Shown: positions 1,968 to 7,948, counted from the first letter of the stretch. The stretch is DNA of 64,000 bases from an uncultured Smithella sp. (GCA_964539765.1 CAZIJZ010000003.1:12734-76733), one strand, 5' to 3'. The notes: generated from the letters alone by a model not told the origin. Program-made: numbers and translations.

Positions 1968-2100
1968 TGATTCCTGAGAAGTAACCCCGTTTTCCTGAAA
2001 AATGCTTGGTGACAAAAAATAAAAGTATCGTAATTATAAGGCATTAGAAGTGCCGTATTTTGCCATTTTGCACCAAAAGGCAGTTACTTCTCAGGAATCA
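1968..2100. repeat. MITE-like inverted-repeat element (18-bp perfect arms, 97-nt spacer)
   Basis: The left arm tgattcctgagaagtaac (1968-1985) is the exact reverse complement of gttacttctcaggaatca (2083-2100). No ORF lies inside. Confidence 0.6.
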
Positions 2101-2130
2101 GTATTTTAGAGGCGTCCCTATGCGCCTATC

Positions 2131-3087
2131 CTATTTATGATTTTTAATCGCTTCACCTATTGTACTACGAATCTCATCAGAAGATGGTGGCAATAAATCT
2201 CCGTATGGCAGTAATTGTTCAACACTTTTCTTTTCTAGAATAATATGATTTAAGTTAAGTAAGCGTTGTTTACACGGTTCATATGCTTTGTGCCATTTAT
2301 CAATATATAGTAATTCAATTTTATATTTAGCAGATGCGTTACAGGATGAATCGTATGTCCCTCGATTTTTACACATTGAATTTGCTATAAATAAAGAATT
2401 ATTATATCCATTCTCCCAAGCCTTATAATCTGGCTCTGGACACAGAAGCGCTTTATAGTTATTTTCCAATCCTTTTTTATAATCAGATAATAATCGCACT
2501 TTTATTTTTTTATTAAATCCATTTGTCTCTTTTGGAATACTATCTTCGATTTCTTTAACGATTATTTTTGTAACATTTAATGGTTGAATAAAATCAGATT
2601 TAAGTTTTTCTGCCGTATATATTTTAGATTTATCATTAAAACGTGATCCTAATTTATTCATATATGCCATGTAACTTTTACCATTTAAATATGCTATTTG
2701 TTGGCCATAAAGCTGTTCCTCTGCATAATTGAGTTTTTTAGACATAGAATCACTCTCGGTTCGTAAATTAGACAAATTACTGCTCAATTCGTTCTTTATT
2801 TTGTTTAATTCTTCTATCTCTTGCTTGCTGTTTGATATTTCTTGTTTGTATTTTTCAACTTGTTCTTGCCACTTACTCTTTTCAATTTCTAACTTAGCAA
2901 GTTCTTCAGATATTTTTTCTTTTTGAAAGACAGGCACAACCGTATAAAAATAACCCCATGCCACCACTATTAACATCAAAATTTGAGATACATTAGCTAG
3001 TATCTTAATGACTTTTTCTAAGTCAGGTGAGGTAATAAATTTCCCTAATCTTTGATATATTGAATGTTTTAATAAATTTGTTTTCAT
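2131..3087 (-). CDS. membrane-anchored coiled-coil protein, unknown function
   Basis: 318 aa with one N-terminal TM helix (ILMLIVVAWGYFYTVVPVF). A K/E/S-rich coiled-coil-like stretch of about 90 aa follows, then a Cys-containing C-terminal domain. Its AT-rich codon usage matches the island. Confidence 0.6.
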   Translation of the reverse strand: MKTNLLKHSIYQRLGKFITSPDLEKVIKILANVSQILMLIVVAWGYFYTVVPVFQKEKISEELAKLEIEKSKWQEQVEKYKQEISNSKQEIEELNKIKNELSSNLSNLRTESDSMSKKLNYAEEQLYGQQIAYLNGKSYMAYMNKLGSRFNDKSKIYTAEKLKSDFIQPLNVTKIIVKEIEDSIPKETNGFNKKIKVRLLSDYKKGLENNYKALLCPEPDYKAWENGYNNSLFIANSMCKNRGTYDSSCNASAKYKIELLYIDKWHKAYEPCKQRLLNLNHIILEKKSVEQLLPYGDLLPPSSDEIRSTIGEAIKNHK

Positions 3088-3110
3088 AAATTATTTTATA
3101 ATCGCTGCGC

Positions 3111-3268
3111 CTAAATCTCAAATCTGGGGACACCATATTAGTTTGTTCTAGATACTATTAATTTATTTTTTTGAATCATGCGGAATCAAAAGTTTCTTCT
3201 GAAACTCGCCGCTAAATTAGACAGATTTTTAATAGCGCCTTTTGGGGATGGAAAGCAAGGAAAATATT
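3111..3268 (+). repeat. direct repeat DR2, copy a (~130-160 nt)
   Basis: It aligns by eye at roughly 70 percent with 7424-7546. Shared blocks are aatct.aaatc.gg.gacaccata, ttcta.a.acta.t.aatttatttt, tgaa.catgc.gaa, cgcctttt and gcaag.aaatatt. Confidence 0.7.
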
Positions 3269-3333
3269 AGAATGTTCAAGATTCTATGTTCAATTTATCA
3301 AGGGAATAAGAATGCAGGCTGAGTAAAGTTTCT

Positions 3334-3362
3334 AATTAAGTATACTGTCCCCCAAATTTCTT
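3334..3362 (+). repeat. short direct repeat DR1, copy b
   Basis: Same as the 1912-1940 repeat. The pair brackets the 318-aa gene. Confidence 0.7.
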
Positions 3363-3451
3363 ACCCTCATCCCTTGTTACCCCAAAAATAATGTTGTCAT
3401 CTCTGCATCATTGATATATTAATAGCAAGGAGTAATCTCGGGAATATCCCA

Positions 3452-4588
3452 ATGAAAAAAAAGCATAAAATAATAGATTTATTCTGTGGTGCTGGCGGCT
3501 TCACCCTAGGTTCGCACTTTGCTGGTTTTGATACCGTCTTAGCGATCGATATTGACAAAGATATTACTGCGAGTTTCAATAACAATTTTGCCAAAACATC
3601 GCTTTTATTAGAGGATGTTTCTCGTCTGAGTCCGGCATATATTAGAGATAAGGCAAATTCAAAAACAGATCGTATTGCCGGTATCATAGGCGGGCCTCCA
3701 TGCCAAGGATTTAGCCATATTGGCAAGAGAAATAAAAATGATGAACGTAATACATTAGTTAATCATTTTTTTAGGATTGTTTCAAAGATAAAACCAACTT
3801 TTTTTGTTATGGAAAATGTACCGGGAATTATGCACGGCTTCGGACGTCGCATCCTCACTTCTGGTATTGATTTAGTTCATAGACGATATGAAATATTGGG
3901 ACCGCTAACCCTGAACGCTGTAGATTTTGGCGCTGCAACTATAAGACGTCGTGTGTTCGTGATTGGTTATCTGCCTGAATATATGGAACGACTAACAGAA
4001 GTCGACATCAACACTCTTAAAATAATGACACCCGCCAGTACCGCAGATGCAATAAATGACCTGCCAAAACTTTGTAAGGGATACAAAAATGACAATGATG
4101 AATATTTAGCATTTTATCCGAAGGATATAGATGAAGATCTAATTAGCGCATATGCTCGAAGGGCAAGAAAGGCGCCGCCCAAAAGAAGTGTTTCAAAGAT
4201 TATTAGTGATGCACATGCTAATGGCATAGTATCAGGCTATCAGCCTACTACTCATACGCAGGATGTGTTTAAACGTTTTTCAAAGATTTTGCCTGGGCAA
4301 ACTGACAATATTTCTAGATGCCAGAGACTTTCATGGAATATGCCTTGTAATACTTTACGGGCTGGTACAGGAAAAGATAAAGGCGGTTATCAATCTATTC
4401 GACCGATTCATCCTGAAGAAGATAGAGTTATTTCTGTAAGAGAAGCGGCAAGAATTCAAGGATTTCCAGATTGGTTCCAGTTTCATCCCACTATATGGCA
4501 TAGTTTTAGAATGATAGGTAATAGTGTATCGCCTTACATTGCAAAAGCCATACTCAGTCAAATCGCAAAAAAATTAGATAATAATTGA
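3452..4588 (+). CDS. dcm: DNA (cytosine-5)-methyltransferase
   Basis: 378 aa with the canonical C5-MTase motifs: I DLFCGAGGF, IV GGPPCQGFS, VI ENV, VIII RRRVFVIG and X GNSVSP. Confidence 0.95.
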   Translation: MKKKHKIIDLFCGAGGFTLGSHFAGFDTVLAIDIDKDITASFNNNFAKTSLLLEDVSRLSPAYIRDKANSKTDRIAGIIGGPPCQGFSHIGKRNKNDERNTLVNHFFRIVSKIKPTFFVMENVPGIMHGFGRRILTSGIDLVHRRYEILGPLTLNAVDFGAATIRRRVFVIGYLPEYMERLTEVDINTLKIMTPASTADAINDLPKLCKGYKNDNDEYLAFYPKDIDEDLISAYARRARKAPPKRSVSKIISDAHANGIVSGYQPTTHTQDVFKRFSKILPGQTDNISRCQRLSWNMPCNTLRAGTGKDKGGYQSIRPIHPEEDRVISVREAARIQGFPDWFQFHPTIWHSFRMIGNSVSPYIAKAILSQIAKKLDNN

Positions 4589-4609
4589 TTAAGGGCAATA
4601 ATATTTAAA

Positions 4610-5557
4610 TTATAAGTAAAACTCACCAAACATCGGGTAATATCTATATAATTCATGGTAGGATTTAAGTTGATCATCGCGCAAGCCTAGTTTTTCCATT
4701 TCATCACTTGTCGGAGCTTTTTCGCGTGGCAATATTCTGTCAAGTTCAATTTTTTCTTTTATAGTCAGATGTGGTACATTTATTACAAATGGTGTTTCCC
4801 CTTTTATATAATCGAATTTATCCGATAATCTACAATCTATTAGTCGCCGCTTGTAATCGTCGTCTACAAACATTCCGCTAATAGTGATCATCGGCGCTCC
4901 GTCTGCGTAAAGAATATTAAATAATGGATAAAATTCTTCTCGCCTACCCGATTTTTTTAAAGCACTTTTTATTCGAGAAAAAATAATTTTTGCGAGAAGA
5001 ATGGGGTACGTCCCCACACGAATATCCGAGTCTTTCGTGTTGATTGGGACAAAGTCGCCCGCCAATCTACGTAAGGCGTCTAATCTTGTATATTTTCCTT
5101 TTTTCCCCTTAATTTTATCATGATCTGCATTAACAGTTAAAATAAAAATACTTCCTATCGGTGCTTTTTCGCAAACGATTCTAGTATCCTCCAAAGCTGG
5201 TCCATTAGCAAGACCGGTATCGTGATCAAGCCATATGACAGCTTTTTGCCGCAATGCTGACATATCAGGAAGTACTTTTGTTGTTTCACCTGGCACTATC
5301 TTAATACAATCGTAAGGTTTATTAAAATCTGCACGTTTCTCATATTCAGCTCTTTCTATCGAAAACATCTTCTGGATATTAAGAATTTTATGCACCAAAA
5401 TAAAATCAACGAACCACATAGATCCCATGCCAATATACGAATAATCGGATATCTCGAAAGGTTCTTTTATTTCCGTTAATGCTTCGACAATAAGCTTACG
5501 TTCTATATTTTTATTTGGACGGAGCAAATAATTTATTTTATCAAACGACGGTTTCAT
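4610..5557 (-). CDS. uncharacterised 315-aa protein, translationally coupled partner of the GHKL ATPase
   Basis: The long ORF starts at an ATG that overlaps the upstream GHKL stop by 4 nt (ATGA). I recognise no catalytic motif. YIGMGSMWFVDF and VIWLDHD could be Rossmann-like strands, but that is speculative. Confidence 0.7.
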   Translation of the reverse strand: MKPSFDKINYLLRPNKNIERKLIVEALTEIKEPFEISDYSYIGMGSMWFVDFILVHKILNIQKMFSIERAEYEKRADFNKPYDCIKIVPGETTKVLPDMSALRQKAVIWLDHDTGLANGPALEDTRIVCEKAPIGSIFILTVNADHDKIKGKKGKYTRLDALRRLAGDFVPINTKDSDIRVGTYPILLAKIIFSRIKSALKKSGRREEFYPLFNILYADGAPMITISGMFVDDDYKRRLIDCRLSDKFDYIKGETPFVINVPHLTIKEKIELDRILPREKAPTSDEMEKLGLRDDQLKSYHELYRYYPMFGEFYL

Positions 5558-6885
5558 ATTTCCTCTTCCAATTCATTCTTCGCATAATAATCGAATGTCT
5601 CGAGTCCCAATTCTCTGTTGGACATATCTTTATTACCTAAGGATTCTTTCACTTTATTAACTATATCTAACTGTTTCCGATAGCTAATAGAAGTCATAGT
5701 TATCGCGCGTTTTGTGAATGTAGGAACTACAATAGCTTCGTTTTGCTCTAGCGCATAAAGATTGGTGGGTATGGCTTTCTCCTCCATTTCCTTTGCCTTA
5801 TCTAAATCTGCCTTTCGAGCATTAGTGTAATCGAGATATTTACGCGTCACATCTTTCATTTTAGTTAAAGCACGTCTATAAAGTTCCGATGATCCATCTA
5901 AGTTTCTCTTTGTTGTTGTCCAAGGTAATTTTCCAGGATCTGCGCATTGAAAATTAATTATTCCCATAAAACCATTATATTGCGGATGCCAATGCGGAAA
6001 ATCGTCTCCCCAAATGGTACTAGCCGTTTTATCGCCAGCCAAGACGATTCTATCGTTGCACGACACAAACCATCCATAATAATCTATTTGACGTAATTCT
6101 TGCATTTCTTCTGCCGAGTCGTCATCTGGAGGAATATTAGCCATTCCTGCTTTTATCTCTATCATTACGTCTTTTTCTACATCATCGATATATTTTATAT
6201 AAACGGGTGTAAATTCATCGCTCTTAAGAAGAGTAAAATTGAAAGGCGATACGTTGTTTTCATTGACCATTAATTTAAAACCCTTCTGCAGGAAAAATGA
6301 GTAATCGCGAGCTACAATGCGGACAAATGCATTTGCAAAAGCGTCCAACTTAAATTCATCTTTTATAGGTGGCCTAAGATTTTTTATTACAATACTAGTA
6401 CCTTGAATTTTCGAATCCCACGGTTCGATATCGAAATCCCAATCTTCCGTTTGTTGCCAAGCTGAAACATCTATAGGAACCTTATATGAATCGGCACCGT
6501 TTTTTGTAGCAATTTCGATATTACGTCCAATTTTAAAAATCGCTCTTTTCATCCCGATTCCGTATAGACCGATCAGGCCCTTTGCATCGGCCGGCGCTCC
6601 GGGACGTCTCCCAAAATGAAAAGCGTAATCAATTGCTATGCTAAGAGGTATCCCTCCGCAATTGTCTTCAATAGAAAATTTATCGGCATCAAATGATATT
6701 TTGCAGAAAAAACCGTTATATGGTTTCTCTGAGGAAGGTGGACTGTGTTCTATATTTATTCGCATTGCCCCATCTAGAGAATTATCCAGTAAATCTAGAA
6801 TGCAATCTACAAGTGACACATCCTTTGTTATTGTATCAATGAAAAAATCTTTAACAGGTCCACCATGCGCTTTTGTACGTTCCAT
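5554..6885 (-). CDS. GHKL-superfamily ATPase (HATPase_c_3 / MORC-MutL-like)
   Basis: 443 aa with the Bergerat-fold motifs: N-box DLLDNSLDG, G1 EDNCGGI and G2 GLYGIGMKRA. There is no histidine-kinase dimerisation/phosphoacceptor (DHp) domain and no gyrase or MutL C-terminal domain. Confidence 0.85.
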   Translation of the reverse strand: MERTKAHGGPVKDFFIDTITKDVSLVDCILDLLDNSLDGAMRINIEHSPPSSEKPYNGFFCKISFDADKFSIEDNCGGIPLSIAIDYAFHFGRRPGAPADAKGLIGLYGIGMKRAIFKIGRNIEIATKNGADSYKVPIDVSAWQQTEDWDFDIEPWDSKIQGTSIVIKNLRPPIKDEFKLDAFANAFVRIVARDYSFFLQKGFKLMVNENNVSPFNFTLLKSDEFTPVYIKYIDDVEKDVMIEIKAGMANIPPDDDSAEEMQELRQIDYYGWFVSCNDRIVLAGDKTASTIWGDDFPHWHPQYNGFMGIINFQCADPGKLPWTTTKRNLDGSSELYRRALTKMKDVTRKYLDYTNARKADLDKAKEMEEKAIPTNLYALEQNEAIVVPTFTKRAITMTSISYRKQLDIVNKVKESLGNKDMSNRELGLETFDYYAKNELEEEI

Positions 6886-6909
6886 ATTACTCGCTCCAAA
6901 TCAGTCAGA

Positions 6910-7317
6910 CTAATTTTCTAAAAATTTAATTATGCGTTTCGATGTAGAATTAATATTTTTAAGATTACATTGCCATATTATAAGATATCTCCACCCCATC
7001 GAGGTTAGCTCCTTGAATTTTTTATTGTCTCTCAATTTATTGGACTCGATTTTAGTTCTCCAATAAGCAACACGCGTTTTGGGCAATCTGGCTTTTTCGC
7101 AACCATCATGCCCATGCCAAAAGCAACCGTTTACAAATATGGCTTTCTTTTTAGATTTGAATACCAAATCGGGTTTGCCCGGAAGGCTTTTATCATGCAA
7201 ACGATATCTATGACCCATTGCATACACTAGTTTCCTTACTAATATTTCAGGCTTAGTGTTCTCAGAATGAACCGCTGCCATTATTTTACTTCGTTTTTCT
7301 TTTGTCACATGGTCCAT
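6910..7317 (-). CDS. vsr: very short patch repair endonuclease
   Basis: 135 aa with SENTKPE near the N-terminus. It carries FVNGCFWHGH and WRYLIIWQC, both typical of Vsr. Confidence 0.9.
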   Translation of the reverse strand: MDHVTKEKRSKIMAAVHSENTKPEILVRKLVYAMGHRYRLHDKSLPGKPDLVFKSKKKAIFVNGCFWHGHDGCEKARLPKTRVAYWRTKIESNKLRDNKKFKELTSMGWRYLIIWQCNLKNINSTSKRIIKFLEN

Positions 7318-7423
7318 ATATGAACCTTTATATCTATAATAAAAAACACGACCATTTTATTATGCTGGTTTATTTAGTTAGTTTACATTCCTCTCCGCGA
7401 GGATTACATGGAATGAATCTTAA

Positions 7424-7546
7424 ATCCGGTGACACCATACTAATATATTCTAAACACTATATAATTTATTTTAGTGAAACATGCAGAAAAATGTGGGACG
7501 GAATTTTATAAACGCCTTTTTTGAGGATATTGCAAGAAATATTTTG
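7424..7546 (+). repeat. direct repeat DR2, copy b
   Basis: See 3111-3268. Together the two copies bracket the dcm / partner / GHKL / vsr module. Confidence 0.7.
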
Positions 7547-7658
7547 TACTTAAGTCCTACGTCGCTTCGCTCCTAGGATAGTTCGTCCTGCAAATTTCAG
7601 CGCGCTACGCTTCTAAAATTTGGGACTCACTAAAATCAAGAATTTTTTTGAAAAACCG

Positions 7659-7700
7659 TTCTATGTTCTATGTTCTACGTTCTACGTTCAAAGTTCTATG
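7659..7700 (+). repeat. heptanucleotide tandem array (TTCTAYG x6)
   Basis: ttctatg ttctatg ttctacg ttctacg ttcaaag ttctatg, contiguous with exact 7-nt periodicity. Confidence 0.9.
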
Positions 7701-7757
7701 TTAAAAATAGCTGAACCAAGTTTTAAGATTTAAGGGTTAAGTAGTTAAGAAGCAAAA

Positions 7758-7813
7758 GGTGAAAGGTGAAGAGTGAATGGTAAAAAGTGATTGGCGGCTA
7801 GTGAATGGTGAAT
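7758..7813 (+). repeat. heptanucleotide tandem array (RGTGAAN x8, degenerate)
   Basis: ggtgaaa ggtgaag agtgaat ggtaaaa agtgatt ggcggct agtgaat ggtgaat. Confidence 0.8.
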
Positions 7814-7948
7814 AGAAAAATGCTATGTTAAAAATAACTGAATGGTGAAGAGCTTCCATGCTCTATATCTTGCGGCTACAACCTTCTTGACTCGCAAGAA
7901 ATCGTTTCTTATACTTCACTCCCAATAGATGAAAGGAAGTTCTTAGAA

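Follow-up and report, generated by a model that had tools for sequence, protein, structure and literature searches.

The 315-aa protein encoded in the 64,000-nucleotide window analysed here (the window being the whole stretch of DNA), which we call MT35, is firmly assigned to the methyltransferase fold, and its cofactor site is conserved. Equally firm are the findings that MT35 is genetically inseparable from a MORC-like ATPase and that the pair travels with a DNA methylase of changeable class, accompanied by T:G repair genes only in the 5-methylcytosine (m5C) versions. The explanation that we judge probable is that MT35, a member of the Pfam family PF20553, is a methyltransferase-fold, SAM-using subunit and the obligate partner of a GHKL ATPase in an ATP-driven complex acting on unmarked nucleic acid. 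We rank this explanation first, a second modification enzyme next, regulatory methylation or SAM sensing third and a cryptic nuclease last.

If the pair is the active arm, the cassette would be a restriction-modification-like immunity module with a methyltransferase-fold effector that is driven by a MORC-like ATPase and has no nuclease. This would represent a new effector chemistry for bacterial immunity and would provide a tractable bacterial model for MORC-type ATPases reading DNA methylation, which is an open question in plants and animals. The MT35 family is large (2394 clusters at 50% identity), mobile and present in phages, plasmids and DISARM operons; because the family is absent from PADLOC-DB 2.0.0, the genomes that carry it are under-annotated. 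The window protein itself is another member of the already catalogued PF20553.

The MT35 gene and its cassette

The cassette and the island that carries it comprise the following features of the window.

6910 to 7317, minus strand: Vsr T:G mismatch endonuclease, 135 aa, first gene of the operon (Pfam Vsr, E 9.6e-33; TIGR00632, E 8.3e-43)
5554 to 6885, minus strand: MORC/Hsp90-like GHKL ATPase, 443 aa (HATPase_c_3, E 8.5e-10; AF2 model; fold matches)
4610 to 5557, minus strand: MT35, PF20553 class-I SAM-methyltransferase-fold protein, 315 aa (ORF, translation, Pfam, AF2 model, fold matches)
3452 to 4588, plus strand: Dcm-type C5-cytosine DNA methyltransferase, 378 aa, convergent (PF00145, E 1.9e-57; TIGR00675, E 1.6e-43; PADLOC MTase_II, E 1.5e-97)
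2000 to 7900, no strand: low-GC island carrying the cassette (composition profile)

The island has a GC content of 30-39%, compared with ~48-56% in its flanks. The minus-strand operon has the order vsr-ghkl-mt35, with vsr lying 24 nt upstream of the GHKL start and MT35 last, and the stop codon of MT35 is separated by 21 nt from that of the convergent Dcm gene, the translation of which has intact PCQ and ENV motifs. The MT35 ORF (ATG start, 315 codons, minus strand, 4610-5557) is as the first-pass annotation had described it, and all four peptides quoted there are found in the translation. A GAGGA-type ribosome-binding site precedes the ATG of MT35, which shares 4 nt (ATGA) with the TGA end of the GHKL gene upstream. 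MT35 is a real gene with many homologues: there are 72 clusters at 90% identity, all of ~310-340 aa and all (72/72) with PF20553, and a profile search over 1.84 billion representatives recovered 2394 clusters at 50% identity that reach E ≤ 0.001, 1352 of them with E below 1e-30. A search for fusions, which is weak evidence, found no longer, fused forms of MT35.

Apart from the Vsr mismatch-repair gene, no nuclease gene was found in the core cassette by Pfam, PADLOC or fold matches. DrmA/B/C/D or Brx/Pgl genes are absent from the window, and PADLOC-DB 2.0.0 returned zero families for the window MT35 and GHKL ATPase at E ≤ 1. We also note, within the low-GC island, a 318-aa protein (2131-3087, minus strand) that has a single TM helix near its N terminus, then a long coiled coil and, towards the C terminus, a part containing Cys; this protein gave weak coiled-coil matches only and is not conserved beside the cassette elsewhere.

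MT35 has a predicted class-I methyltransferase fold and a conserved cofactor site

MT35 matched PF20553 (Methyltransf_35, "putative O-methyltransferase") over residues 4-313 with an E value of 2.5e-93 and a score of 313.2 bits, against a gathering cut-off of 27 bits, and the match covered positions 2-307 of the 309 in the model. It also belongs to phrog_19983 in PHROGs, where its function is given as unknown. The first-pass annotation had seen no recognisable catalytic signature in this protein and had suggested a new family; neither view survives this full-length match to existing families and the conserved class-I methyltransferase motifs described below. Its observation that nuclease, helicase and NTPase motifs are lacking was borne out, as Pfam, NCBIfam and PADLOC searches revealed no nuclease, helicase or P-loop motif, and the NCBIfam and PADLOC searches with MT35 gave no match at all. 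No confident match to a well-characterised non-DNA enzyme, which would have counted against the first-pass proposal, was obtained, PF20553 being a family for which we found no characterised member; MT35 may still be DNA-modifying, the other role suggested there. Searching PDB sequences with the MT35 family profile yielded only a chance isoprenyl-transferase match (E 0.52). Full-text searching of the literature found no paper naming PF20553 or Methyltransf_35, no test of any GHKL-plus-methyltransferase-fold module and no biochemical or genetic test of a family member; "O-methyltransferase" is a putative name that the database gives to PF20553.

The AF2 model of MT35, for which a 69-sequence alignment was the input, had a pLDDT of 93.5 and a pTM of 0.91. 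Its strands (40-44, 63-68, 85-89, 106-111, 137-143, 208-218 and 222-231) form a seven-strand beta/alpha core with the order of elements, read from the secondary structure, that defines class-I methyltransferases. Foldseek comparison of the model with the PDB counted at least 500 matches, of which 489 reached E ≤ 0.001, and every enzyme among the matches listed has a SAM-dependent-methyltransferase fold. VIA-align, which is independent of Foldseek, placed Trm1 (3axt) at the top, with a Z score of 15.2 over 215 residues (model range 6-309), followed by RsmD-like enzymes, RlmI/RlmO, PrmA, RsmH, TlyA and Trm5 at Z 13-15; the RsmD-like HI0767 and Rv2966c had Z 14.2-14.7 and rmsd 2.6-2.7. As modelled, MT35 is a class-I Rossmann methyltransferase fold with a small helical C-terminal addition, and these two parts account for the whole chain; the first-pass guess of a Rossmann/methyltransferase-like alpha/beta fold was right. 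The folds nearest to the model are mostly those of RNA-modifying enzymes, with scores that lie within one Z unit and single out no substrate.

We considered MT35 as a member of the Trm1 family (PF02005) and rejected this assignment: there was no Pfam match at E ≤ 1, and hhalign comparison with 16 archaeal Trm1 sequences gave a probability of 0.2%, the alignment being confined to 33 columns around motifs IV-VI. The resemblance between MT35 and Trm1 is structural only. Like Trm1 (tRNA m2,2G26) and the RsmD-type N2-guanine RNA methyltransferases, MT35 has a class-I core in which a GxG loop is present and strand 4 is followed by an Asp; unlike them, it has D-Y-D in place of DP(F/P)(G/F), shows no sequence-level relation and lies in a defence-island-like rather than a translation-related context.

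Conservation was counted over 69 aligned MT35 sequences and mapped onto the predicted secondary structure. Gly-43 and Gly-45, which form the GxG after strand 1, are invariant, Glu-68 at the end of strand 2 is present in 66/69 sequences (Asp in 2), and Asp-111 at the end of strand 4 is invariant; further, Thr-141 and Asn-143 after strand 5 and Tyr-217 and Asp-219 at the turn between strands 6 and 7 are conserved. MT35 thereby has both the glycine-rich motif I and the strand-2 acid that characterise SAM binding in class-I methyltransferases. The conserved positions are SAM-binding or catalytic-edge sites in class-I enzymes and therefore point to selection on a working cofactor site, which, judged by its sequence, is predicted to bind SAM. 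Conservation also extends to an N-terminal basic helix (Arg-13, Lys-16, Glu-19, Arg-20 and Lys-21) and to two C-terminal motifs (Thr-265/Glu-268/Asp-273 and Tyr-300/Tyr-304/Pro-308/Glu-312). Of the acidic clusters that had been picked out for mutation at first pass, Asp-111 and Asp-113 hold up, the latter being Asp or Glu in 64/69 sequences, but Asp-145-His-146-Asp-147 is not conserved.

The residues that follow strand 4 read D111-(Y/H)112-(D/E)113-x-x-L-x-G-P, and the (D/N/S)-P-P-(Y/F/W) or Trm1-type D-P-F-G motif expected at this position of a nucleic-acid amino-methyltransferase (N6-A, N4-C or N2-G) is absent, D-Y-D standing there instead. The conserved N79-x-P81 precedes strand 3 and is, by topology, away from the catalytic edge. 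A C5-cytosine methyltransferase was rejected, as MT35 has no PF00145 match and no conserved Cys at motif IV; Cys-84 is present in only 57/69 sequences and is located before strand 3. MT35 has no large variable region able to serve as a target-recognition domain. A Toprim-like reading of Glu-68 and D111-x-D113 was likewise rejected, as Glu-68 occupies the canonical SAM-ribose position on strand 2 and the fold is that of a seven-stranded methyltransferase.

MT35 is genetically inseparable from a MORC-like GHKL ATPase

The AF2 model of the GHKL ATPase (pLDDT 83.8) consists of a GHKL domain and a middle (transducer) domain, and its best solved matches are TRAP1/Hsp90, SMCHD1 and the N-terminal and middle domains of MORC2/3. 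Conserved residues (D31..N35..D38, D74xGxG, G106xxGxG and K326) include the Asn that binds Mg, the loops DxGxG and GxxGxG and the lysine of TTTK. The ATPase has no nuclease domain, its last 40 residues being three short helices. We note that Asp-31 (in D-L-L-D-N) replaces the usual catalytic Glu of ExxxN and is an invariant Asp in 20/20 aligned GHKL homologues; an Asp as general base suggests a slow ATPase or an ATP-binding switch.

Related loci were identified by a scan with a 25-sequence MT35 alignment, and those from genomes span the Spirochaetota, Acidobacteriota, Gemmatimonadota, Pseudomonadota, Bacteroidota, Myxococcota, Actinomycetota and a Woesearchaeote. In 29/30 genome loci, the GHKL ATPase gene directly precedes MT35 and shares its strand, the sole exception being a contig that begins 409 nt before MT35; the ATPase gene also lies upstream of MT35 in 56/56 metagenome loci with at least 1.4 kb of upstream sequence (the two sets partly overlap, as some metagenome contigs duplicate genome loci). 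As a rule, the start of MT35 overlaps the ATPase stop by 1-11 nt. The first-pass proposal that MT35 is a functional partner of the ATPase is thus supported by gene order. Prediction of a complex between the GHKL ATPase and MT35 gave a median score of 0.06, against a mark of 0.32, which we take as speaking neither for nor against binding.

The pair travels with a DNA methylase of changeable class

A full Dcm gene is present within ~5 kb of the pair in 24/30 genome loci, and the remaining six are short or truncated contigs or the locus L020. Vsr is found in 17/30 genome loci and an HhH-GPD glycosylase instead in 3/30, and, among metagenome loci with wide flanks, Dcm is present in 23/26 and Vsr in 22/26. 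The orientation of the cassette genes relative to each other varies. Two instances of the HhH-GPD glycosylase in place of Vsr, beside a Dcm-linked cassette, are L005:5860-6708 and L010:8924-9709, where the glycosylase presumably provides an alternative T:G mismatch repair function.

At two loci (L063:8512-9483 and L064:6035-6886), an N6_N4-class DNA methylase replaces Dcm, and its gene overlaps the pair at stops and starts. Both loci come from the phylum of the window, lie in low-GC islands and are without Vsr or any other T:G repair gene; T:G repair genes accordingly accompany the Dcm versions and 0/2 of the N6_N4 versions. The two N6_N4-linked MT35 proteins form one clade nested among the Dcm-linked ones, a placement subject to a long-branch caveat. 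In the lineage to which both L020 (1926-3501) and L130 belong, an intact ATPase-MT35 pair is directly preceded by a C5 methylase of which no more than the C-terminal ~60 residues can be recognised. Here the methylase is degenerate and the pair is not, which argues against strict lethality of the pair without a methylase at the locus, although a second methylase elsewhere in the genome is possible.

This gene content recalls several known systems. ParaMORC GHKL ATPases have been predicted to be restriction-modification components beside Dcm and Vsr (Iyer, Abhiman and Aravind 2008, PMC2292703), and the defining combination of that operon type, a GHKL and S5/transducer ATPase linked to a DNA methylase and Vsr, is found in the window, in the related loci and in the fold of the ATPase. 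As described in the passages of that paper on paraMORC/MORC operons, these likewise combine a GHKL and S5-type ATPase with a cytosine DNA methylase and Vsr, are sporadic and laterally mobile and are predicted to act on DNA depending on how it is methylated (PMC2292703). The same passages describe them with helicases and with RE-fold, HNH, HKD or TIR nucleases, whereas our cassette has no helicase and no such nuclease; its only constant ATPase partner is a methyltransferase-fold protein, of which those passages make no mention (PMC2292703).

Like type II m5C restriction-modification systems with Vsr (M + V + R), the cassette combines a Dcm that looks active with a gene for T:G repair, varies in relative gene orientation, lies in a low-GC mobile island and has an extra module tightly linked in the R-gene position. 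Unlike in those systems, however, the R position is held by an ATPase and a methyltransferase-fold protein and not by an endonuclease, and the same ATPase-MT35 pair also joins N4/N6 methylases and DISARM. DISARM and BREX, which are methylation-based defences whose mechanism is unclear or nuclease-independent, similarly combine self/non-self marking by a DNA methylase with ATPases, and one homologous pair lies inside a class-1 DISARM operon; the window differs from them in having none of their Drm or Brx/Pgl genes. Recent work has described Tiamat and VcSduA, in which GHKL ATPases with a role in defence are fused to PD-(D/E)xK nucleases, and these fusions underline how unusual the nuclease-free partner MT35 is.

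Possible modes of action of the ATPase-MT35 pair

We propose that MT35 and the GHKL ATPase form an ATP-driven complex and that the cassette is a mobile immunity module linked to methylation. The complex would be its restriction-like or effector arm, which does not itself modify; the adjoining DNA methylase would mark self DNA and Vsr or the HhH-GPD glycosylase would repair deamination of 5-methylcytosine. The GHKL clamp would supply ATP-dependent engagement of DNA, and MT35, which most likely binds SAM within the complex, may either methylate nucleic acid that lacks the protective mark or probe it via its methyltransferase-type pocket. A methylase of changing class, together with T:G repair confined to the m5C versions, is what would be expected of the restriction side of a restriction-modification system with an exchangeable M gene, and this linkage pattern fits the 2008 paraMORC restriction-modification prediction as set out in the relevant passages of that paper (PMC2292703). 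The lack of a nuclease executor in the core cassette, the lack of an obvious target-recognition domain and the Dcm remnant at L020 and L130 do not fit a restriction-like arm. Also against this explanation are the D-Y-D motif, which differs both from the PP-aromatic motif that marks amino-methyltransferases and from the PC found in C5 enzymes, and the Trm1 profile comparison, which was not significant.

A bolder form of the same proposal is that the pair is a nuclease-free immune effector that recognises DNA without the methyl mark of the cassette and neutralises it without cutting, either by adding a methyl group that is harmful or silencing or by trapping and compacting it in an ATP-dependent manner. 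The pair would then be a prokaryotic equivalent of the connection that eukaryotes show between MORC proteins and DNA methylation. We put this forward as speculation and think it unlikely.

Among the alternatives, MT35 might be a second self-marking DNA or RNA methyltransferase that is loaded or regulated by the GHKL ATPase and adds an extra epigenetic mark, in which case the cassette would have no restriction arm. The intact SAM site, the nucleic-acid methyltransferases among the nearest folds and the absence of a nuclease are all consistent with such an enzyme, as is the survival of an intact pair beside the Dcm remnant in L020 and L130, which would be expected of a non-toxic module. We nevertheless consider it unlikely, as it does not account for the near-constant attachment of a separate, conventional DNA methylase whose class changes, for the dependence of a methyltransferase on an obligate ATPase or for a distribution typical of defence cargo (a genomic island, prophage/inovirus cargo and the interior of a DISARM operon).

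MT35 could instead methylate a protein or a small molecule, or sense SAM without catalysis, and thereby regulate the GHKL ATPase or the DNA methylase without touching nucleic acid; either of these two could itself be the protein target, as in CheR-type carboxyl methylation. The database name of PF20553 points in this direction, COMT-like enzymes, which do not stand out from the many other Foldseek matches, and PrmA are among the fold matches, and the family has a median pI of ~6. Further, Asp-111, Asn-143 and Asp-219 lie at the strand ends that, by topology, we take to hold the metal and substrate residues of catechol-type (COMT) enzymes. Against this, neither an O-methyltransferase (PF01596) nor a protein-methyltransferase profile was matched in Pfam or NCBIfam, RNA base methyltransferases predominate among the top structural neighbours, and the change of class of the partner methylase makes a conserved protein substrate in that methylase unlikely. 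We regard a regulatory role as distinctly improbable.

Finally, the first-pass suggestion of a new nuclease, in the form of a cryptic nuclease or DNA-damaging enzyme on a methyltransferase scaffold with metal bound by Asp-51, Asp-111, Asp-113 and Asp-219, appears very improbable: the cassette does fill the place of an R gene without a recognisable nuclease, and several invariant acids do occur where helix A begins and at the C-terminal end of strand 4 and of strand 6, but the invariant GxG and Glu-68 are exactly SAM-binding elements, no nuclease is among the fold matches listed, no nuclease domain or fold (PD-(D/E)xK, HNH, PLD/HKD, Toprim or GIY-YIG) was found by Pfam, NCBIfam, PADLOC or fold comparison, and we know of no nuclease with a class-I methyltransferase fold. 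MT35 is not a nuclease by any criterion applied; the fold, the motifs and every profile library indicate a SAM-dependent methyltransferase instead, and we retain the SAM-using subunit of an ATP-driven complex as the preferred explanation.

Distribution, mobility and variant settings of the cassette

An HMM search of an unbiased sample of 401 genomes from the phylum of the window identified 3 carriers, including the window genome, and the cassette was found in 0/7 other genomes of the same genus or family. The other two carriers are those of the loci L063 and L064 described above, where the pair overlaps an N6_N4-class methylase and not Dcm. The MT35 tree is incongruent with taxonomy, the closest relative of the window protein being from a Spirochaetales MAG (55% identity). 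We conclude that the cassette is sporadic and horizontally moved because it lies in a low-GC island, is patchily carried, conflicts with taxonomy in its tree and occurs as inovirus cargo. The last of these refers to the Pseudomonas inovirus PfAC20 (L032; PP058144.1, 280-3711), in which the ATPase, MT35 (38.7% identity) and a cytosine methylase are the first three ORFs, as accessory cargo; L035 (IMG/VR), the only locus from viral contigs, is a near copy of this cargo. PHROG families exist for both MT35 and the ATPase.

The DISARM-embedded pair lies on the Microvirga terrae plasmid pR24_2 (L033; NZ_CP102847.1), between an MmeI-like DrmMI and DrmA of a class-1 operon. Its MT35 is 25% identical to the window protein and matches PF20553 with E 1.2e-80, and PADLOC-DB 2.0.0 returned zero families for this pair.

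The E. coli EC36 locus (L062), an integrase island at ssrA in which Dcm is followed by a gene for a 583-aa GHKL protein and then a PD-T7-5 gene, was considered as the same cassette and set aside as a different module. A DNA search with the PfAC20 cassette, made to find it in E. coli, matched only Dcm genes.

Additional genes adjoin the cassette at some loci. A Rhodobacterales clade has a conserved 279-280-aa ORF between MT35 and Dcm (L024:5058-5897, L027:9044-9886, L028:9008-9847 and L029:9008-9847), which gave no Pfam, PDB or PADLOC match and which language-model features put near DUF6997/DUF6996 proteins. One metagenome variant, with no detectable Dcm, has an HNH_2 endonuclease-domain protein directly after MT35 (L129:8131-9129), and two loci (L007:4369-6117 and L022:9113-10870) have a second, longer GHKL protein of 582-585 aa, with HATPase_c_3 only, adjoining the cassette; the 583-aa GHKL protein of E. 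coli EC36 is similar to it. None of these extra neighbours (HNH_2, DUF6997-like ORF or second GHKL protein) is general. Lastly, in an alphaproteobacterial genome, the cassette is adjoined by a gene for a CAP12/Pycsar-type TIR effector (L017:10047-10979), which indicates a defence-island setting.
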